A stretch of 64,000 bases of DNA from Nannocystis bainbridge (GTDB lineage: Bacteria; Myxococcota_A; Polyangia; Nannocystales; Nannocystaceae). The DNA lies in assembly GCF_028368995.1 (NCBI RefSeq), contig NZ_JAQNDL010000003.1, forward strand, positions 2,528,001-2,592,000, written 5' to 3'. Shown in pieces: positions 5,572 through 31,904 of this stretch. The position numbers and the translations under genes were made by a program. How positions within the stretch are numbered: position 1 is the stretch's first letter; every line of letters begins with the position of its first letter. The notes below the pieces were generated by a model. The model saw nothing but the letters and a program-made list of their open reading frames with translations, made no database searches and was not told the DNA's origin.

Positions 5572-7944
5572 ATGAAGCGATCCATCATCCGAATCAGCCA
5601 TCATTGTGCATCTGTCCTTTCGACCATGTGGATAGTGACCGCTTGCGGTCAGGGCGATCCGACGGCCACCGCGGGTGCGACCGACGGCTCGACTACCAGC
5701 GAGGTCCAGACCGGTACGACCGCCCCGGCCTCGACCGGCGTCATCCCGACCACCGGCACGCCGACGACGACGACGACGATCGGCATGAGCGGCACCGTCG
5801 ATCCGACCACCGACGGTCCTTCGACCACGACGACCACCACCACCGGCGAGACCGACAGCACCACCGGCGAGCCCGACCCCGTCTGCGGCGACGGCCAGCT
5901 CGACCCGGGCGAAGCCTGCGACGACGGCCCCGACAACGGCGCTGGCAAGCCGTGCAACATGCAGTGTCAGGCCAACACTTGCGGCGACGGCGATCAGGGC
6001 CCCGGCGAGGAGTGTGACGACGGCGCCGACAACATGGACACCAATAGCTGCAAGGCCGACTGCACCGACAACGTCTGCGGCGACGGGGCCGTCGGGCCGG
6101 GCGAGGGCTGCGACGACGGCAACGAAGACGATAGCGACGACTGTACCAATTCCTGCGCGCTCGCCAGCTGCGGCGACGGTATCGTCGCCCCGACCGAGCA
6201 GTGTGACGACGGCAACGCCGACAACAGCGACGATTGCACCGACACCTGCACCGACGCCACCTGCAGCGACGGTCACGTCCAGGACAGCGTCGGCGAACAG
6301 TGCGACGACGGCAACGCCAACGCCGACAACGCCGCCTGCACCACCAGCTGCAAGCTCAACGTCTGCGGCGACGGGGCCCTCTACAACACCGGCGACGGCA
6401 TCGAGGAGTGCGACGACGGCGTCGACAACGGGGCAGGCAAGGCCTGCAACGCCGGGTGTCAATTCAACACCTGCGGCGACGGCGACCAGGGCCCCGGCGA
6501 GGCCTGCGACGACGGCGACCTCGATCCGGGCGACGGCTGCTCGGCCACTTGCAAGCTCGAGGAGTGCGGCAACGGCACCCTCGATCCGGGCGAGGACTGC
6601 GACGACGGGCAGAACGGCGATGACGACGACGGCTGCACCGACAGCTGCGAGCTCCCCGCCTGCGGCGACGGCATCCATCAGCCCAACGAGGGCGAGCAGT
6701 GCGACTTCGGCGGCAGCAACAGCGACAGCGGCGCCTGCACCGTCGCTTGCAAGCTCGCCACCTGCGGCGACAGTTTCGTCCAGGCCAACGTCGAGCAGTG
6801 CGACGACGGCGTCAACAACGGCCCCGGCAAGCCGTGCAACGCCATGTGCAAGACCAACATCTGCGGCGACGGCGACAAGAGCCCCAGCGAGGCCTGCGAC
6901 GACGGCAACCAGAGCAACGACGACGCCTGCACCAACGTCTGCAAGCTCGCCACCTGCGGCGACGGCTTCAAGCAGCCCGGCGAGCAGTGTGACGCCGGCA
7001 TCGGCAACAGCAACACCGGCGTCTGCACCCTCGCCTGCAAGAACCCGATCTGCGGCGACACCTTCGTCCAGCCCGGCAAGGGCGAGCAGTGCGACGACGG
7101 CAACCTGTCCGACAACGACGCCTGCCTCAACACCTGCAAGTCCGCCAGCTGCGGCGACGCCATCGTCCATCAGGGCGTGGAGCAGTGCGACGACGGCAAC
7201 GCCAACAACAACGATTTCTGCAACAATCAGTGTCTGCTGCCGACCTGCAGCGACGGCGTCAAGAACGGCAGCGAGAGCGACGTCGACTGCGGCGGCTCGT
7301 GTGGCAAGTGCGGCCTCGGCGGCTCGTGCCAGAACAACAGCGACTGCGCCCAGCAGGCCTGCATCAACAACGTCTGCGCATTGACCAAGAGCTGCAAGGA
7401 GCTCAAGCAGGCCAACCCCGCGCTCGGCGACGGCGACTACACCATCGATCCGGACGCCGGCGGCGCGGTCCAGCCGCTCGTCGTCCATTGCGACATGGAC
7501 GCCGGCGCCTGCGGCTACACCATGGTCCGCTTCAACGATAACGCGCTCGGCAGCCACCAGGACGCCTACACCAACAAGTGCGCCGCCGTCGGCATGGAGG
7601 TCATCGTCCCGCGGACAAAGGTCCACGCCACCGCGATCGTCGGCTGGAACGGCGGCGTCGTGCCCAACCTCTACAACGTGTTCCCCAAGAACAACGGCGC
7701 CCAGGCCATCACCAACTGGACCGGCCGCTGCCAGGGCCAGCCGTGCACGTTCTGGATGACCGACAACGCCCAGGGCAACGTCTCGTGCATGGCGCCGCCC
7801 TCGTTCGAGCCCAACGGCGACAACAGCGTCAATTATCGCATCTACAAGTGGAACGAGGGCTGCGGCATCGAGGGCGGCTGGAACGACGCCAACGCCTCGG
7901 TCATGTACACCGGCTGGGTGGTCTGCTCGACCAACGACTGCTGA
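5572..7944 (+). CDS. Myxococcus cysteine-rich repeat (DUF4215-type) lipoprotein with fibrinogen-like hinge and variable C-terminal domain
   Basis: GGAGG RBS. VTAC lipobox. Many CGDG...GEeCDDGN repeats. SCKELK...GDYTIDPD...VHCDMD. Confidence 0.85.
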   Translation: MKRSIIRISHHCASVLSTMWIVTACGQGDPTATAGATDGSTTSEVQTGTTAPASTGVIPTTGTPTTTTTIGMSGTVDPTTDGPSTTTTTTTGETDSTTGEPDPVCGDGQLDPGEACDDGPDNGAGKPCNMQCQANTCGDGDQGPGEECDDGADNMDTNSCKADCTDNVCGDGAVGPGEGCDDGNEDDSDDCTNSCALASCGDGIVAPTEQCDDGNADNSDDCTDTCTDATCSDGHVQDSVGEQCDDGNANADNAACTTSCKLNVCGDGALYNTGDGIEECDDGVDNGAGKACNAGCQFNTCGDGDQGPGEACDDGDLDPGDGCSATCKLEECGNGTLDPGEDCDDGQNGDDDDGCTDSCELPACGDGIHQPNEGEQCDFGGSNSDSGACTVACKLATCGDSFVQANVEQCDDGVNNGPGKPCNAMCKTNICGDGDKSPSEACDDGNQSNDDACTNVCKLATCGDGFKQPGEQCDAGIGNSNTGVCTLACKNPICGDTFVQPGKGEQCDDGNLSDNDACLNTCKSASCGDAIVHQGVEQCDDGNANNNDFCNNQCLLPTCSDGVKNGSESDVDCGGSCGKCGLGGSCQNNSDCAQQACINNVCALTKSCKELKQANPALGDGDYTIDPDAGGAVQPLVVHCDMDAGACGYTMVRFNDNALGSHQDAYTNKCAAVGMEVIVPRTKVHATAIVGWNGGVVPNLYNVFPKNNGAQAITNWTGRCQGQPCTFWMTDNAQGNVSCMAPPSFEPNGDNSVNYRIYKWNEGCGIEGGWNDANASVMYTGWVVCSTNDC

Positions 7945-8166
7945 GCGTGGGTCGCCGCGCCGCCCCGCTCCAGGGGTGGCGCGGCCTCGATCGAGCCGTG
8001 ACACTCGACCGCCACGAGCCGACGAATGTCCGCAGTCGCGGCGAACCTTGTCCCCGCAATTACCTGGTCGTCCGCTGACGACATTTGTCCGGCGAAAACC
8101 TCGCGCGACCTCGCGCGCCCGGCCGCAGCTTGACCCGGCTGCAGACCCGGGCGCACCCTCGGGCCA

Positions 8167-26727: not shown

Positions 26728-26853
26728 TCTGTCCCAAGGGACATCTCACCGGACCTCCTGTGTGGTCCGGCGCTCGCCGAGTCGCCGGACCGCACGACGA
26801 CTCGGCCGCTCGGACAGTTGCGCCCGTCAGCGCGATCGGTAAGCTGGGCGGCT

Positions 26854-27906
26854 ATGAGTTCAAAATGCCTCGCCCTAACTCACGCCTTAATCGCCGTCCA
26901 GCTCGCCGCCTGTGGTGAGCCCGTGACCCAGGGCGACACGGGCAACATGAGCGACGGCTCGTCGACCACCGACGGCAACCTGACCGCGACGACCGTCCCG
27001 ACCACCGGCCCGACCGGCAGCGGCAGCGAGACCGGCACGAGTGACAGCGAGGGCAGCGGCAGCAACAGCGACACGCAGGCCACCACCTCGACCAGCACCA
27101 CCGACCCGCTCACCGGCACGAGCGCGACCGACAGCACGGCGACCACCACGCCCGGCACGACCACGCTCGACACCACCACGCTCGACACCACGACGACCAC
27201 CGACTCGACGACGTCGACCGCGAGCACCACCGGCGAGACCGCGACCGACACCACCGACGGCACCACGAGCACCACCGATGGCGGCACCACGGGCGACCCG
27301 GTCGGCTGTGGTGATTCGCTGACCGCGGTCATCCGCGACTTCAAGCTCGCGCACCCCGACATGGAGGATTACTGCTGCGGCCAGGTCGACGGCCTCGTCC
27401 AGCCTACCCTCGGCCCCGACAAGAAGCCCGCGTTCAAATCGGTCGGCAACCCCAAGATGCTCACCGACGCGCCGACCTTCGCGCAGTGGTACAACGACGT
27501 CGCCGACGTCAATCATAAGACCCAGATCTCCCTGAACCTGGTCGAGATTCAGCCCGGTCTCTACTCGTACACCAACAACGATTTCTTCCCGGTCGACAAT
27601 ATGTTGTGGGGCAACGAGGGCCAGAACCACAACTTCCACTTCACGACCGAGATCCACACCAAGTTCCAGTACGCCGGCGGCGAGACCTTCACCTTCCAGG
27701 GCGACGACGACGTGTGGGTCTTCATCGACGGTGACCTCGTCATCGACCTGGGCGGCGTCCACGGCGTCGCCAGCGGCACCGTCGACCTCGACGACCTCGG
27801 CCTCCAGCTCGGCGACATCTACAACCTCGACGTCTTCCACGCCGAGCGCCACACCGTGCAGTCGAACTTCCGCATCGACACCACGATCTGCGCCGTCCCG
27901 ATGTGA
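26854..27906 (+). CDS. Fibro-slime (PA14-like) domain lipoprotein
   Basis: LAAC lipobox; [35 protein letters not shown]. Confidence 0.9.
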
Positions 27907-28212
27907 CCGGCCGCTGAATCCGCCCGCGACCTCGCCCTCGATGACCGAGCGCGAGGTCGCGTCGCGACTGCGACCGACCCTCGCGCGGATCAGCGCCGCC
28001 TCTCGAGCACGAGTTGAACTCGAATGAGAGCGATATCGAGGCGCGCGGGGCTGCCCGCCCCTTGCCATCGCCCGCCGAGGGACCATCTTCGCACATGCGT
28101 GGTCCTCGTTCGCGAGTCCGCGGCCCCGGCGTCCGGGCCCAGCGATACGGCTCGATACATTCCGATTCATTAGGATAGGAAATCGCCCCAGCTTCTCCCC
28201 GAGGTTCGCAGG

Positions 28213-28270
28213 CAACCTGTTGAAATCATGCATGTTGGCCACCCGATTGACGGCTGGCCTGTTGCGTGCT
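28213..28270 (+). promoter_or_regulatory. Candidate sigma54 (-24/-12) promoter with upstream IHF-like site
   Basis: TGGCCTGTTGCGTGCT (GG-N10-GC) at 28255-28270. TTTCAACAGGTTG on the minus strand at 28213-28225 is one mismatch from WATCAANNNNTTR. Confidence 0.5.
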
Positions 28271-28284
28271 CAAGTGGGGTCAAG

Positions 28285-28625
28285 GACCTGCGTCATGGCA
28301 CCGATCGCCGTCACCACGAAAGATACGCACCAGCCCGTCGCCAGAGATGCGATGGGTAAGCGTATTCAAACGTGGCGACGTGGTCGCGGGTGCTGAAGCA
28401 GAGCACTGCAACCGTCCGCGACCACGAAGTCGGCGAGCGTCCAACTGGCGGCAAAACGAAGCGCCGCCAGACGCTCAGTTCGCGGCGCGTCGATCGTTCG
28501 TCTCCTCCGCGAGCTTCTTCCAGGTCGCCCTCGCTTCCGGGTTCGGAAGACCGGGGCCACACCTCGGGCCTGCGTCGAAAGACGCTGGCATCGGCCAACT
28601 CGGCCGGATTCGCGTCGTCGACGCG
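28285..28625 (+). ncRNA. Unassigned ~340-nt multi-helix structured RNA or leader preceding the tRNA array
   Basis: At least 10 helices visible by eye, a closing helix GACCTG/CAGGTC and a GAAA tetraloop; no credible ORF. Confidence 0.65.
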
Positions 28626-28626
28626 C

Positions 28627-28644
28627 GTTCTTTTACAACTGAAT
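28627..28644 (+). promoter_or_regulatory. rRNA-operon-type boxA antitermination-like element
   Basis: GTTCTTTTACAACTGAAT resembles rrn boxA (GYTCTTTRAMAA); preceded by a hairpin at 28611-28625. Confidence 0.55.
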
Positions 28645-28665
28645 CGTGGAAGAGGAAGAGAAGAT

Positions 28666-28734
28666 TGCGTCGTCGGGCGGCCCCGACCCTCGGCTCTGAC
28701 CCGAGGCTTGCTGGATCGACACCAGCCGGCGCAA
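28666..28734 (+). tRNA. tRNA-Gln(CUG), compact and atypical
   Basis: TGCGTCG/CGGCGCA; CTCGG-CT-CTG-AC-CCGAG; T-loop ATCGACA. Confidence 0.75.
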
Positions 28735-28776
28735 TTTCAGTCGCAGGCCCGACCTATCGTCGGCCTGCGCAATCGA

Positions 28777-28847
28777 GGTGCCGTGGCCGAGTGACAGGCA
28801 GCGCTCTCATAAGGCGCCATACGCAGGTTCGTTACCTGCCGGCACCA
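28777..28847 (+). tRNA. tRNA-Met(CAU) (Met versus Ile2 not resolved)
   Basis: GGTGCCG/CGGCACC; GCGCT-CT-CAT-AA-GGCGC; T-loop TTCGTTA. Confidence 0.8.
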
Positions 28848-28863
28848 TCCTCGATGACAAATT

Positions 28864-28936
28864 GGGCTGCGAGCGAAGGCGCTGGCGAACCCTTGCAAGG
28901 TTCGTGTTACATCGGGGGCGGTACCCGAGCGGTCCA
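28864..28936 (+). tRNA. tRNA-Ala(UGC), atypical
   Basis: GGGCTGC/GCGGTCC with G3:U70 and A73; CGAACC-CT-TGC-AA-GGTTCG; T-loop GGCGGTA. Confidence 0.75.
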
Positions 28937-29020
28937 TACGCGGCGTAACGGCGCCTGTTACGTCACAGCGAGCGTTCTGCACACACACGGCGGTCGGAGC
29001 CGTGCTCGCACCGACAACCT

Positions 29021-29108
29021 GGAAGCGTCGTCCAATGGTAGGACAGCAGACCGTTAATCTGCCTGGGCAATCGCCCACTCGATGCAAGTTCGATCCTTGC
29101 CGCTTCCG
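29021..29108 (+). tRNA. tRNA-Asn(GUU) with long variable arm
   Basis: GGAAGCG/CGCTTCC, G73; GCAGA-CC-GTT-AA-TCTGC; V-arm TGGGC-AATC-GCCCA. Confidence 0.8.
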
Positions 29109-29113
29109 CTCCT

Positions 29114-29186
29114 GGGCCGATGGGACAGATGGATGTTCAGCGGGTTCTTACCCCGCCTCAGGCTGGATCGTTACCAGCTCGGCTCG
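29114..29186 (+). tRNA. tRNA-Lys(CUU)
   Basis: GGGCCGA/TCGGCTC; GCGGG-TT-CTT-AC-CCCGC; T-loop ATCGTTA. Confidence 0.8.
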
Positions 29187-29220
29187 TATCTCTTATTTAT
29201 TCTATAATCATTAGCAAACT

Positions 29221-29308
29221 GGGCTCCGGCCAGGACGGGAATGGGGCGGACTTTTAATCCGCATGCCGGGCGCTTGCGCTCGACCGAGTTCGACTCTCGG
29301 GGAGCTCT
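29221..29308 (+). tRNA. tRNA-Lys(UUU) with long variable arm
   Basis: GGGCTCC/GGAGCTC; GCGGA-CT-TTT-AA-TCCGC; V-arm CGGGCG-CTTG-CGCTCG. Confidence 0.8.
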
Positions 29309-29355
29309 TATATCTTCAATAACACTCTCGTTCGCGGCTCGAATGGGCCGCTCTT

Positions 29356-29429
29356 GCCGCCGTAGGGGAGTTGGAGTCTCCGCCTCGTTGTCAGCGAGGA
29401 GATCGCGGGTTCGAGTCCCGCCGGTGGCG
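29356..29429 (+). tRNA. tRNA-Asp(GUC) copy 1
   Basis: GCCGCCG/CGGTGGC, G73; CCTCG-TT-GTC-AG-CGAGG; TTCGAGT. Confidence 0.9.
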
Positions 29430-29471
29430 TTGTTCATTGATATCGATATCTCGGCCCGTACGGGCCGATTT

Positions 29472-29545
29472 GCCGCCGTAGGGGAGTTGGAGTCCTCGCC
29501 TCGTTGTCAGCGAGGAGATCGCGGGTTCGAGTCCCGCCGGTGGCG
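29472..29545 (+). tRNA. tRNA-Asp(GUC) copy 2
   Basis: Near-identical to copy 1. Confidence 0.9.
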
Positions 29546-29577
29546 TCGATCCATCTCTGCCAGCAGGGCCATTCTTT

Positions 29578-29651
29578 GCCGTCGTAGGGGAGCTGGAGTC
29601 CCCGCCTCGTTGTCAGCGAGGAGATCGCGGGTTCGAACCCCGCCGGTGGCG
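29578..29651 (+). tRNA. tRNA-Asp(GUC) copy 3
   Basis: Near-identical to copies 1 and 2. Confidence 0.9.
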
Positions 29652-29658
29652 CTCGAGC

Positions 29659-29727
29659 AGGGGCGCGCGTGGTGTGCTACGCGAGGCTTTGAACCTCGTA
29701 AGGAGAGTTCGAACCTCTCCGCCCCTT
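29659..29727 (+). tRNA. tRNA-Gln(UUG), compact
   Basis: AGGGGCG/CGCCCCT; CGAGG-CT-TTG-AA-CCTCG; TTCGAAC. Confidence 0.75.
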
Positions 29728-29800
29728 ACCCCTCGGATTTATCTTCGACTCTGATGAATCTTCCACCCGACGTGATTCGTATCTGAATCATCGAACATTC

Positions 29801-29871
29801 GCCGATGTGGCCTAGTGACTGGGCGTCACCCTTCCAAGGTGAAGACGCGGGTTTGATTCCTGCCATCGGCT
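29801..29871 (+). tRNA. tRNA-Gly(UCC)
   Basis: GCCGATG/CATCGGC, U73; TCACC-CT-TCC-AA-GGTGA; T-loop TTTGATT. Confidence 0.85.
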
Positions 29872-29885
29872 CTCTGTGAACCTCT

Positions 29886-29957
29886 GCAGTTCAGGTCTTG
29901 TCAGTGAGACGCGTGGTTGCCTACCACGAGGGCCCGGTGCGACCCCGGGGAGCTGCT
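29886..29957 (+). tRNA. tRNA-Gly(GCC)
   Basis: GCAGTTC/GAGCTGC, U73; CGTGG-TT-GCC-TA-CCACG; T-loop TGCGACC. Confidence 0.78.
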
Positions 29958-29969
29958 CTACCGTGAATA

Positions 29970-30037
29970 GCCCTTGCTCCAAGGGGGCGCGCTGCTTGGT
30001 ATGTAGCGATGTCCGGGAGCGTTACCCGGCGAGGGCT
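29970..30037 (+). tRNA. tRNA-Thr(GGU), reduced D-arm
   Basis: GCCCTTG/CGAGGGC; GCTGC-TT-GGT-AT-GTAGC; T-loop AGCGTTA. Confidence 0.7.
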
Positions 30038-30047
30038 TTTGAATCTT

Positions 30048-30120
30048 GCCCCCCAAGCATCAATGGTGATGCGCCGCCCTCGTAGCGCGGAATCGCCGGG
30101 TTCGATCCCCGGGAGGGGCT
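30048..30120 (+). tRNA. tRNA-Thr(CGU)
   Basis: GCCCCCC/GAGGGGC; loop CT-CGT-AG; TTCGATC. Confidence 0.8.
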
Positions 30121-30135
30121 ACCTTTTGAAAGGCC

Positions 30136-30207
30136 GGTCCACGAGCTCCCCGGTCGAGCGCCTGCCTGACATGCAGGAGGTACGAGGTTCGATTCCTCGA
30201 TGGACCA
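30136..30207 (+). tRNA. tRNA-Val(GAC)
   Basis: GGTCCAC/ATGGACC, A73; CCTGC-CT-GAC-AT-GCAGG; TTCGATT. Confidence 0.85.
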
Positions 30208-30230
30208 CTCGTTTCCAGTCTGGACAATCT

Positions 30231-30302
30231 GCTCTCGTCGTCTAATAGATAGGGCCCAGGTCTACGGAGCCTGCGATGGTGGTGCGATTCCACCCGAGAG
30301 TA
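30231..30302 (+). tRNA. tRNA-Arg(ACG)
   Basis: GCTCTCG/CGAGAGT; CAGGT-CT-ACG-GA-GCCTG; T-loop TGCGATT. Confidence 0.82.
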
Positions 30303-30322
30303 CTCATTTTGATAAAGACAAT

Positions 30323-30394
30323 GGCCTCGAAGTGTATGAGATTGCACGCGACCGTCCGAAGGTCGTGGACCGGGTGCGACTCCCGGCGGGGCTG
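30323..30394 (+). tRNA. tRNA-Arg(CCG)
   Basis: GGCCTCG/CGGGGCT; CGACC-GT-CCG-AA-GGTCG; T-loop TGCGACT. Confidence 0.8.
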
Positions 30395-30415
30395 CCGGGC
30401 CTGCTTGCGGGTCAC

Positions 30416-30488
30416 GCTCGCGTAGCTCAGCTGGACGAGCATTGGTCTTCTATACCATCGGACGCAGGTTCGAACCCTGCCGCGAGTA
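30416..30488 (+). tRNA. tRNA-Arg(UCU)
   Basis: GCTCGCG/CGCGAGT; TGGT-CT-TCT-AT-ACCA; TTCGAAC. Confidence 0.87.
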
Positions 30489-30514
30489 TCTTCGTTCGTT
30501 TGAATCGTTCATCC

Positions 30515-30586
30515 AGGGGAGAGGTGTTGATGGTGACATGCGGGACTCCAACTCCTGCGAACCGGGTTCGAGTCCCGGCTCCCCTG
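30515..30586 (+). tRNA. tRNA-Trp(CCA)
   Basis: AGGGGAG/CTCCCCT, G73; CGGGA-CT-CCA-AC-TCCTG; TTCGAGT. Confidence 0.87.
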
Positions 30587-30616
30587 TCTTGCATGGGCCC
30601 GGTGCTTCCGGGCCGT

Positions 30617-30682
30617 GGAGCCCGTTCTGGTGGAACGTCGCGGCGCTGCCGCGGTCGTCGGTTCGAGTCCGGCGGGGCTTCT
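30617..30682 (+). tRNA. Minimal tRNA-like RNA with GCU (Ser) triplet, no variable arm; identity uncertain
   Basis: GGAGCCC/GGGCTTC; GTTC-TGGTG-GAAC; TCGCGGC-GCT-GCCGCGG; canonical T arm GTCGG-TTCGAGT-CCGGC. Confidence 0.5.
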
Positions 30683-30683
30683 T

Positions 30684-30754
30684 TGGGCTAAAGCTCGTGA
30701 GAAGAGCGGTGCTCTGTGACAGCACAGGAGAGGGGGCGGAACCCTCTAGCCCAC
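30684..30754 (+). tRNA. tRNA-His(GUG) without encoded G-1
   Basis: TGGGCTA/TAGCCCA, C73; GTGCT-CT-GTG-AC-AGCAC; T-loop GGCGGAA. Confidence 0.78.
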
Positions 30755-30776
30755 CCGCGCGCCAACCGGCGCGCAC

Positions 30777-30848
30777 GCCCGCGTAGCTCAACGGAAGAGC
30801 GGCGTTCTCACACATCGCAGGTCGGGGGCTCGACACCCTCCGCGGGCA
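30777..30848 (+). tRNA. tRNA-Val(CAC)
   Basis: GCCCGCG/CGCGGGC, A73; loop CT-CAC-AC; T-loop CTCGACA. Confidence 0.8.
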
Positions 30849-30870
30849 ACGAACGTCTTCGTAACAACCT

Positions 30871-30941
30871 GGCCCTGTAGTTCAACGGCAGAACCCCGCG
30901 CTCTCTACGCGGAAACCGGAGATCGTCACTCCGCAGGGTCA
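30871..30941 (+). tRNA. tRNA-Glu(CUC)
   Basis: GGCCCTG/CAGGGTC; CCGCG-CT-CTC-TA-CGCGG; T-loop ATCGTCA. Confidence 0.8.
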
Positions 30942-30947
30942 TTCGTA

Positions 30948-31020
30948 CGAGGTGAAGGCTTGATGGTAAGCCGCATGCTCGGGGAGCATGAGATTGTGCG
31001 TTCGACTCGCACCACCTCGA
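30948..31020 (+). tRNA. tRNA-Pro(GGG)
   Basis: CGAGGTG/CACCTCG (C1-G72, A73); CATGC-TC-GGG-GA-GCATG. Confidence 0.83.
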
Positions 31021-31042
31021 TTGTTTTTATTTCAACAATCAT

Positions 31043-31116
31043 CGGAGACGGATCGCGGAGTGCGAGGCGTGTTTCGGGAACACGTAGGCGGGGTGCGACG
31101 CCCCGGTCTCCGACCA
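31043..31116 (+). tRNA. tRNA-Pro(CGG), encoded CCA
   Basis: CGGAGAC/GTCTCCG, A73 then CCA; CGTGT-TT-CGG-GA-ACACG; T-loop TGCGACG. Confidence 0.8.
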
Positions 31117-31162
31117 ACCCCTGCCCCGGGCCGCGGCCAAGCGCTGCGGCCCGGGCTCTCTC

Positions 31163-31233
31163 CCGCGTCCGTGGACGGTGCCACACCTCGTCTGATAAGC
31201 GAGCCCTTCGGAGTTCAACTCTCCGGGCGCGGA
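31163..31233 (+). tRNA. tRNA-Ile(GAU)
   Basis: CCGCGTC/GGCGCGG, A73; CTCGT-CT-GAT-AA-GCGAG; TTCAACT. Confidence 0.78.
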
Positions 31234-31277
31234 TTTCGATTCTCTTCCTCATCCACGATCCGCGTCGTGCCCCGGGC

Positions 31278-31904
31278 TCATGGCCCGGGGCGCGGCGCCA
31301 GGTAGCCGCCGACGAGGGCGATGAGCTCCTCGACGAGGCGGGGGTCGGACAGCCGCTCGGGCTGCTCGAGCACGCACGTGAGGATCACCCACTCGATCGC
31401 GCTGACGATCACGAACGCGGCCAGCTCCGGGTCGACCGGCCGCAGCTCGGCGCTGCGGGCGATCAACGCGTCGCGCAGGCGCTCGCGGCCCGCGTGCACG
31501 TGGGCCCGCAACGCCTCGACGCGACCGACCCGCGGCACGTGCAGCAGCACCGCGCGGAAGAACTCCAGATCGCCGCGGTAGAGGTCGATCGCGGCGCGCA
31601 GGCCGTCGCGCATCTGCTCGGCGAAGGAGCCGCCGTCGGGCGCCGGGACCTCGAACACGCGCTCGATGCCGCGGGTGAACTTGCGGTCGAGCGCCGCCGC
31701 GAGCATCGCCTCCTTGCTCGGGAAGTACTGGTAGAGCGAACCGACGCTGACCCCGGCGACCCGCGCGATCTCGTTGGTCGTCGTCGCCTCGAGGCCGCGC
31801 TCGCCGAGCACGCGGACGGCGGCGTCGAGCAGCGTATCGACCATCTGCTGGCTCCGCGCCTGGCGCGGCTGCTTGCGCGGGGTATGGCGAATCGGCGAAG
31901 TCAT
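31278..31904 (-). CDS. TetR/AcrR family regulator
   Basis: PRQARS; TTNEIARVAGVSVGSLYQYFPSK HTH. Confidence 0.92.
   Translation of the reverse strand: MTSPIRHTPRKQPRQARSQQMVDTLLDAAVRVLGERGLEATTTNEIARVAGVSVGSLYQYFPSKEAMLAAALDRKFTRGIERVFEVPAPDGGSFAEQMRDGLRAAIDLYRGDLEFFRAVLLHVPRVGRVEALRAHVHAGRERLRDALIARSAELRPVDPELAAFVIVSAIEWVILTCVLEQPERLSDPRLVEELIALVGGYLAPRPGP

Follow-up and report, generated by a model that had tools for sequence, protein, structure and literature searches.

In a 64,000-nucleotide (nt) window of the genome of Nannocystis bainbridge (contig NZ_JAQNDL010000003.1, positions 2,528,001 to 2,592,000; all coordinates below are those of this window), the region 28285-28625, described in an initial annotation as a multi-domain structured RNA, lies directly in front of a cluster of 23 tRNA genes. 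We propose, with a probability of roughly 0.6, that it is the cis-acting 5' leader of a regulated, supernumerary 23-tRNA operon (an "L-array") of Nannocystis-type genomes, laid out in the style of a ribosomal RNA (rrn) operon. The region is structured and conserved, it occurs together with the array, and it ends in an rrn-like module that supplies one strand of a helix enclosing all the tRNA genes. Because it ends in signals copied from rRNA operons, it is most likely the regulatory or processing leader of the operon and not a free-standing giant RNA. The conserved extent of the leader transcript region (approximately 28281-28664, ~380 nt, + strand) starts about 4 nt before the annotated position 28285 and ends beyond 28625. 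It is composed of two parts, a genus-specific RNA of three domains (28275-28607) and a module resembling rrn leaders (28609-28662); the leader carries an uncharacterised RNA domain restricted to the genus and is otherwise an operon leader of a known kind with rrn-type signals.

Structure and distribution of the proposed leader

The region is contained in a 758-nt gap that separates a PA14-domain gene (26818-27906, + strand) from the first tRNA gene. According to ARAGORN, the 2.6-kb array (28665-31233) comprises 23 tRNA genes for 13 amino acids, all on the + strand, out of 102 tRNAs in the whole genome. Every array tRNA (23/23) has a counterpart for the same amino acid outside the array, with a best identity of 60-76%. 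With more than 20 clustered tRNA genes added to a complete housekeeping set, the array fits the definition of a supernumerary (spare) L-array.

All 13 helices listed in the initial annotation are complementary, 12 of them perfectly and one (28310-18/28371-79) at 8 of its 9 pairs. The + strand of 28285-28625 folds with -177.1 kcal/mol, compared to -141.8±5.6 kcal/mol for 100 dinucleotide-preserving shuffles (z -6.35, none of the 100 as good), while the - strand reaches z -3.60. Folded singly, the three sub-domains yield z-scores of -4.43, -4.47 and -3.16 on the + strand (the last value was measured on 28531-28627, thus on domain 3 plus the hairpin that follows it) and of -3.42, -1.60 and -1.99 on the - strand. 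The complementarity of the helices and the z-scores obtained for the whole and for the sub-domains indicate that the structured region is real and more structured than expected by chance. The most divergent homologue (locus L006, 70% identity) also folds alone into the rod shape of domain 1 (z -3.65).

A BLAST search with 28200-28660 against 60 relatives and the genome itself revealed full-length matches in five genomes of the same genus (identities of 88, 88, 88, 87 and 70%), and all five homologues sit directly before a syntenic tRNA array. An invariant 21-mer from the 5' end of the leader, combined with full-length similarity, is present in N. punicea, N. exedens, N. sp. RBIL2, N. pusilla and N. 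radixulma. The covariance model R1, built from domain 2, scores 107-140 bits in six of the 73 genomes of the family, all from one genus, and over 151 genomes of the class it finds nothing beyond the genus except two chance-level matches (29 bits, E 0.02-0.07). The array is present in the same six of the 11 genus genomes as the leader; the five others have neither, and this absence is provisional, since these genomes are 64-88% complete. In other genera we found only matches to single tRNAs of the array (6 of the 30 genomes searched). The distribution of the array among close relatives (6/11) is patchy, as is characteristic of L-arrays. The leader is conserved at 87-88% identity versus 81-88% for the array, and the DNA upstream of the promoter is poorly conserved.

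Comparison with Rfam (cmscan) at gathering thresholds returned tRNAs only for the whole window (12 matches), with no strong match to any family. A scan of 27900-29100 at E<=10 gave seven matches, two of them tRNAs; inside the element there were only mir-1893 (E 5) and Erse (E 5.6), both at chance level. Signatures of tmRNA, RNase P RNA, SRP RNA or T-box, which the initial annotation had not seen either, are missing from these scans, as are 6S RNA, GOLLD and ROOL (the latter two being RF01998 and RF03087). The RNase P RNA (205 bits) and 6S RNA (52.5 bits) of this genome sit elsewhere, so the leader is not a divergent copy of either one. The leader belongs to no Rfam family, GOLLD and ROOL included. 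We found no description of the element in the titles, abstracts and main texts searched.

An Alcanivorax record and four metagenome contigs that also contain the 21-mer were considered as further homologues and rejected, as they share only 25 nt with the leader, inside a protein-coding gene. This identity is exact (leader 28282-28306 against 7921-7945 of locus L028, and likewise in L033-L036) and covers a coding segment that reads KDLRHGTD, in a gene that by eye appears penicillin-acylase-like; there is no similarity past the 25 nt, and by a rough estimate a 25-mer match is not expected by chance.

The consensus structure was calculated with RNAalifold from 28270-28664 and its counterparts, i.e. 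from six sequences of one genus, four of which are ~88% alike. It comprises 134 pairs arranged in three domains plus 3' hairpins, with 95.6% of the alignment cells paired, and many of its G-U pairs are compatible with the + strand only. Covariation is suggested by 12 pairs that are changed on both sides, compared to 3.5±1.5 in 500 shuffles (none of which reaches 12) and to 0-3 when the partners are slid by 1-3 columns. Domain 1 (28275-28414, + strand) is a long irregular rod built of helices 28275-28302/28389-28414, 28303-18/28371-85, 28322-28/28360-66 and 28333-41/28349-57, with double changes at alignment pairs 37/113, 42/109 and 53/97, and it adopts the same shape when folded alone. Domain 2 (28418-28528, + strand) is a three-way junction with the closing stem 28418-29/28517-28 and two hairpins, one formed by 28435-41/28470-76 plus 28446-52/28463-69 and the other by 28477-92/28499-515; double changes occur at pairs 167/206 and 181/196, the structure accounts for 15% of the ensemble of the singly folded domain, and in hairpin 28435-28476 only two positions of the 10-nt loop are variable. 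Domain 3 (+ strand) consists of four short hairpins (28533-50, 28551-67, 28568-89 with GCGTC-GAAA-GACGC, and 28591-607) and shows double changes at 266/283, 306/321, 307/320, 309/318 and 329/341. The shuffling statistics, the consensus and the Rfam scans all bear out the view that a multi-domain structured RNA unknown to Rfam heads the tRNA array on the + strand.

At the level of individual helices the agreement is partial, with nine of the 13 found in the six-species consensus and four outside it. The supposed closing helix (28285-90/28521-26) loses one pair in two of the six sequences, shows no covariation and is not conserved, while helix 28301-05/28429-33 is outside the consensus yet kept in all six sequences. 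Helices 28380-89/28416-25 and 28390-94/28402-06 represent an alternative fold and retain 6/10 and 3/5 pairs in the divergent species. Altogether, three of the listed helices belong to an alternative fold of domain 1, which lies within ~3 kcal/mol of the rod in four species but falls behind it by 8 and 23 kcal/mol in the two that diverge more. We therefore take the rod as the conserved fold of domain 1, and the alternative fold was rejected as a conserved switch because of the 23 kcal/mol deficit in the divergent species. Neither of the two suggested pseudoknots survives the comparison: 28486-93/28618-25 pairs at 8/8 positions in the window but at 4/8 in the divergent species, and 28456-60/28497-501 retains 2/5 pairs in three of the six sequences.

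The rRNA-operon-like end, the candidate promoter and the proposed mode of action

The 3' part of the leader follows the order known from rrn leaders. A hairpin in the position of boxB (28609-28627, + strand) is kept in all six sequences, with one double change at 354/361, and lies 5' of a boxA-like run GTTCTTTTACA (28627-28637, + strand), which agrees at 10 of 11 positions with GYTCTTTAANA, a consensus given for gamma-proteobacteria (PMC5725501). The hairpin and the T-run behind it (28611-28634) are terminator-like in the window and in locus L002, but not in L005 or L006, where the hairpin is retained; as only two of the four scanned sequences have it, a conserved intrinsic terminator is unlikely. 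Then comes a purine-rich strand (28643-28662, + strand, inverted repeat I2), whose partner (31240-31259, + strand) begins 6 nt past the last tRNA. These two 20-nt strands are 95% complementary and 2577 nt apart, so the array is enclosed by a leader-trailer helix longer than 17 bp, as the stable-RNA genes of rrn operons are. Among the five species for which both flanks were available, the duplex formed by 40 nt on each side of the array has -34.8 to -42.9 kcal/mol (5/5), compared to -15 to -18 (±3-4) kcal/mol for shuffled trailers. As read from the flanks, the enclosing helix comprises 17-23 bp in the other four species, and in one of them (L032) a G->C change in the leader strand is matched by C->G in the trailer, which constitutes one compensatory change.

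The resemblance to rrn operons extends to the sequence itself. The leader matches one rrn leader of the same genome at 33/43 ungapped positions and the other two at 19/22; the match score is 36, compared to 22±2.4 for shuffles (maximum 32). This similarity is confined to the last 43 nt of the leader, a stretch that includes GTTCTTTTACA, and the rrn-like module measures ~55 nt overall. Genome-wide, AACTGRAT stands just upstream of GGAAGAGGAAG (AACTGRAT..GGAAGAGGAAG) at 4 of the 11 GGAAGAGGAAG sites, namely in the three rrn leaders and in the array leader only. In an rrn operon the corresponding segment pairs, at -63.6 kcal/mol, with a sequence ~1.6 kb past the approximate 16S start, and we interpret this segment as the leader side of the 16S leader-trailer helix, with the partner at the expected, though unmapped, 3' end of 16S rRNA.

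Ten other tRNA clusters were also checked for a leader or flank helix. Complementary flanks of ~12-13 bp are present near the ends of the housekeeping Thr-Tyr-Gly-Thr cluster (C2:2134398-2134804), which suggests that enclosing helices may be a wider habit of the tRNA operons of this genome. It was the only one of the ten with even such a short helix, and the energies of GC-rich duplexes were uninformative.

Conservation begins abruptly near 28247, at a -24/-12-like element. The promoter region (28247-28275, + strand) contains the sigma-54-like arrangement TGGCC..TGCT at 28255-28270, in which GG (28256-57) and GC (28268-69) are presumably spaced as in sigma-54 promoters. The TGGC and TGCT blocks are invariant in all six sequences (TGGCC-N7-TGCT in N. 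bainbridge), the spacer is variable, and the genome contains rpoN. The same element is overlapped by a weaker, sigma-70-like reading (TTGACG 28247-52, a 17-nt spacer and TCAAGT 28270-75, + strand). Both readings would place the start of transcription near 28281, and the promoter looks sigma-54-like or otherwise regulated. Upstream, four GAT(A/T) direct repeats occur at 28144, 28154, 28164 and 28174 (28144-28178, + strand) with an exact spacing of 10 bp, ~105-137 bp before the predicted start; their columns are invariant in all six sequences amid poorly conserved DNA, and they are a plausible candidate for the binding site of a regulator or enhancer-binding protein.

These features allow us to envisage the following course of events, in which the start site, the use of sigma-54, the action of Nus factors and RNase III and the role of the three domains are all predicted from the sequence. 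Transcription would begin near 28281 at the regulated promoter, from the sigma-54-like -24/-12 element with the four phased repeats upstream. The boxA-like element would recruit Nus factors, enabling the polymerase to read through the long untranslated array, and the Nus complex could keep the leader strand close to the polymerase until the trailer emerges. The leader-trailer helix would then form and be cut by RNase III, as at 16S rRNA, and RNase P would release tRNA-Gln from the leader. The three-domain RNA may act as a cis element that sets the passage of transcripts past the hairpin and T-run, or that protects or organises the 5' end, and might itself be freed as a stable by-product.

Transcripts were sought in assembled contigs of environmental and metagenomic libraries, none of them from pure culture. 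Sixteen environmental runs contained 5-20% of the sampled words, of which four were examined; the runs were chosen for holding a stretch of the locus, and three carry a flag for possible DNA. Two root RNA-seq libraries yielded single contigs of 375 nt (28464-28838) and 421 nt (28310-28730), with ~91% identity, which join the leader to tRNA-Gln and in one case also to tRNA-Met. Two more contigs represent a variant, and the letters on its flanks agree with the divergent homologue G003 as aligned. The contigs reveal relatives with the same layout and are compatible with a leader-tRNA precursor. Parts of the array left uncovered in runs X3, X7 and X8, as well as the start of a 2952-nt contig (X1) at 28247, were not used as evidence.

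Evaluation of alternative explanations

A number of observations weigh against the proposal of an rrn-style operon leader. The covariation is suggestive and no proof, because the pairs were counted on the very alignment from which the structure was predicted, and the sequences are few, of one genus and in four cases ~88% alike. The boxA consensus is gamma-proteobacterial, and the run (counted from the alignment) matches it at 9/11 positions in three other species and at 8/11 in two; moreover, the label "boxA" is uncertain, since the corresponding segment of the rrn leaders is itself part of the 16S stalk. The sigma-54-like pattern TGGCMYN6TGCW has a single site in the 64-kb window (the one described here), with 0.58 expected, and is not rarer than chance, and examination of the neighbouring genes identified no activator gene nearby. 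The contigs show no RNA ends, strand, start or cleavage sites, DNA carry-over is possible, and the runs were preselected. For the first ~330 nt, any specific role is conjectural. Finally, there is a candidate open reading frame (ORF) of 33 codons plus stop (28295-28396, + strand; ATG at 28295, preceded by AAGGA at a distance of 8 nt), wholly inside domain 1, for which six of the 11 variable codons in the five close sequences are synonymous, compared to 0/10 and 0/10 in the other frames and a downstream background of ~23%.

Translation of this frame is the basis of a rival explanation. According to it, the leader is a ribosome-mediated attenuator, in which stalling on the ORF under translational stress would remodel domain 1 and the downstream pairings and permit read-through of the hairpin and T-run (28611-28634) into the array. 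The frame is open from the same start in all six sequences (33 aa in five and 34 aa in the divergent sequence, where 3 nt are deleted in frame), the variable columns of the five close sequences fall at codon positions 1, 2 and 3 in the numbers 3, 2 and 10, two near-isoenergetic folds of domain 1 are available in four species, and the L-array of Anabaena is reported to be induced by translational stress (PMC8421152). With six sequences, however, the signal fades: the positional bias disappears (18, 7, 15) and synonymous changes amount to 6/26 versus 4/24 and 1/22 in the other frames. Only 14/33 residues are identical in the divergent species, by our estimate little more than a non-coding frame would retain at that nucleotide identity, and around the start, 25 nt show no variation at any codon position. 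The ORF matches no Pfam or NCBIfam family, the energetic penalty of the alternative fold in the divergent species and the loss of the T-run in two of the four scanned sequences speak against it, and 215 nt, which include an independent stable domain, separate the stop codon from the hairpin. We therefore regard attenuation as unlikely. A broader speculation holds that the first ~330 nt constitute a sensor RNA of a new class that serves the spare tRNA set, reads the state of translation by ribosome stalling on the ORF or by binding of tRNA or alarmone, and decides between a stop at the hairpin and T-run and conversion, via boxA, to a processive rRNA-style complex that makes and packages the 23 alternative tRNAs; this we consider conceivable, but doubtful.

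Among the three readings offered by the initial annotation, a regulatory leader fits best, as there is no sigma-70 promoter in 27900-31500 (by a simple consensus scan), the rrn-like end pairs with the 3' flank of the array, and leader and array co-occur in six of six genomes. A new class of non-coding RNA is conceivable for the first ~330 nt. A further rival is a small RNA gene of ~350 nt, free-standing and trans-acting, with its end at 28611-28634 and the array transcribed by leak-through or from an unseen promoter. It would explain the terminator-like site in the window and L002, the compact folding of an RNA as conserved as the tRNAs, and the position of the root RNA-seq contigs, mainly over the leader region; but the T-run is missing from L005 and L006, those contigs run on from the leader into tRNA-Gln and tRNA-Met, and the stretch from the hairpin (28609-27) to the first tRNA has no promoter in the consensus scan. 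Moreover, likeness to rrn leaders is greatest in the 30 nt past the hairpin, and the pairing of this stretch with the distal end of the array makes sense only if transcription continues; we judge the small RNA gene to be quite improbable. That the region is a functionless GC-rich spacer or a set of decayed tRNA genes, and owes its good folding to composition, could be argued from the good folding of GC-rich DNA in general, the - strand also exceeding its shuffles, and a sample limited to one genus. The + strand z-score against dinucleotide-preserving shuffles, conservation equal to or above that of the array beside poorly conserved upstream DNA, double changes that preserve pairs, and the lack of any tRNA-like match in the region at E<=10 make this very improbable. 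The remaining reading, which places the leader as a short and divergent case in the GOLLD/ROOL group of large ornate RNAs found with tRNA clusters, draws on the multi-domain fold and on the adjacent tRNAs, a trait reported for both families (PMC5737381), and is hardly tenable. Neither model has a match in 27900-29100 at E<=10, and no other family matches the element beyond chance level; the ~330-380 nt compare to an average of 581 nt reported for ROOL, with GOLLD longer still (PMC5737381); there is one three-way junction and no supported pseudoknot; and the setting is chromosomal without a prophage, while a degenerate pattern of the conserved domain-2 hairpin found no match in viral contigs.

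Comparison with known systems and other features of the locus

The closest parallel for the preferred interpretation, an rrn-style operon leader, is the rrn leader itself, for which the order boxB-boxA-boxC and a leader-trailer helix cut by RNase III have been described, more than 17 bp being critical for 16S rRNA (PMC10250234). The array leader presents a hairpin, a boxA-like run and then a strand of a long helix around stable-RNA genes in the same order, its helix, of 19-23 bp or, by the above reading of the flanks, 17-23 bp, reaches or exceeds the reported 17 bp, and it has direct sequence similarity to the three rrn leaders of its own genome, where the segment forms the 16S stalk. The two differ in that the array helix encloses 23 tRNA genes and the rrn helix an rRNA, that a structured RNA of ~330 nt without counterpart in the rrn leaders precedes the module of the array, and that the array promoter appears sigma-54-like or regulated whereas TTGACG-type sites can be read by eye upstream of the rrn leaders. 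For the array, the action of Nus factors and RNase III is a prediction derived from the sequence alone.

T-box and attenuation leaders are long structured 5' leaders linked to tRNA biology. The Nannocystis leader shares with them its length and structure, the connection with tRNA and, in some species, a hairpin followed by a T-run. It differs in that it has no match to the T-box model at E<=10, its T-run is not conserved, and the downstream genes are tRNAs instead of aminoacyl-tRNA synthetase or amino-acid genes; the comparison of helices in six sequences also revealed no conserved antiterminator alternative in the leader.

The L-array of Anabaena sp. PCC 7120 is reported to be silent until translation is impaired (PMC8421152) and to be repressed by TrcR bound to direct repeats in the promoter (PMC10272220). 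According to these reports, it likewise adds ~23 supernumerary tRNA genes to a full housekeeping set, is patchy among relatives, and possesses conserved direct repeats near the promoter, which in Nannocystis suggest a dedicated regulator. In Anabaena, however, the repeats overlap with the -10 box as well as with the start of a sigma-70 promoter, while those of Nannocystis lie ~105-137 bp upstream of a sigma-54-like element. The words "leader" and "UTR" (untranslated region) are absent from the main texts of PMC8421152 and PMC10272220, so these main texts describe no structured leader or enclosing helix. GOLLD and ROOL are reported to be frequent near tRNAs (PMC5737381), and prophages are another common location. 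The leader is similar to them in being large for a bacterial non-coding RNA, rich in helices and adjacent to tRNA genes, and differs in being half their size or less, limited to one genus, chromosomal and clearly joined to the array, so that the suggestion of a divergent short GOLLD-like RNA finds no support.

Long supernumerary tRNA arrays occur in many phyla; the one case in which their control has been elucidated is a cyanobacterium, which relies on a promoter-bound repressor. The Nannocystis locus suggests a different design, namely a tRNA array in the guise of an rRNA operon, equipped with an antitermination-type site, an enclosing helix and a large conserved RNA domain in front. If this is true, the production of tRNA can draw on the leader-trailer and Nus machinery of rrn operons, culturable strains of Nannocystis provide a handle on when and why a bacterium activates a second tRNA set, and the ~330 nt make up a new structured RNA motif with three domains open to direct probing.

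The genes around the unit (encoding DUF4785, PA14, TetR, metallo-beta-lactamase fold, catalase and histidine kinase proteins) indicate a chromosomal setting without a prophage, and they include no enhancer-binding protein, tRNA enzyme or mobile-element gene. Downstream of the array, a GC-rich hairpin read from the sequence (31269-31291, + strand; 8-bp stem, 7-nt loop) overlaps the stop codon of a convergent TetR-family gene and is a possible transcription end of the unit. On the other side, 19 nt past the stop codon of the PA14-domain gene, there is a 16-bp inverted repeat (27925-27961; 94% complementary, 5-nt loop), which is likely to be a transcription end dividing that gene from the leader unit.

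Outside the array, we found further small tRNA clusters at C2:2356727-2357509, C1:3057230-3057513, C3:526095-526398 and C5:153032-153200. These four contain Leu x5 + Tyr + Pro, Cys x3, Ser x3 and Ala x2, i.e. amino acids absent from the main array, and both the leader and the rrn-like motif are absent from them. The array itself varies in size between species, with 21, 21, 21 and 24 tRNAs, compared to 23 in N. bainbridge, in a comparison of loci L029-L032 and G001, and in content, e.g. by extra Arg, Phe or Ala genes and by one to three copies of Asp; in G001 there are two matching array blocks ~1.7 kb apart. Three array tRNAs have long insertions in the variable region: Asn-GTT (29021-29109, 89 nt), Lys-TTT (29221-29308, 88 nt) and Thr-GGT (30595-30681, 87 nt); the Asn-GTT insertion is missing from locus L002, where this tRNA has 72 nt. 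The 173-nt spacer between tRNA-Met and tRNA-Asn contains a tRNA-like cloverleaf (28863-28937, + strand) called neither by ARAGORN nor by Rfam at E<=10. The minimum free energy structure of 28862-28939 (47% of the ensemble) combines an acceptor stem of 8 bp with a short D arm, an anticodon arm of 7 bp and a T arm, and the anticodon loop CUUGCAA displays the anticodon UGC (Ala). This cloverleaf is the most conserved piece of the locus: its identity is 94-99% across the six genomes, even where that of the leader falls to 70%.

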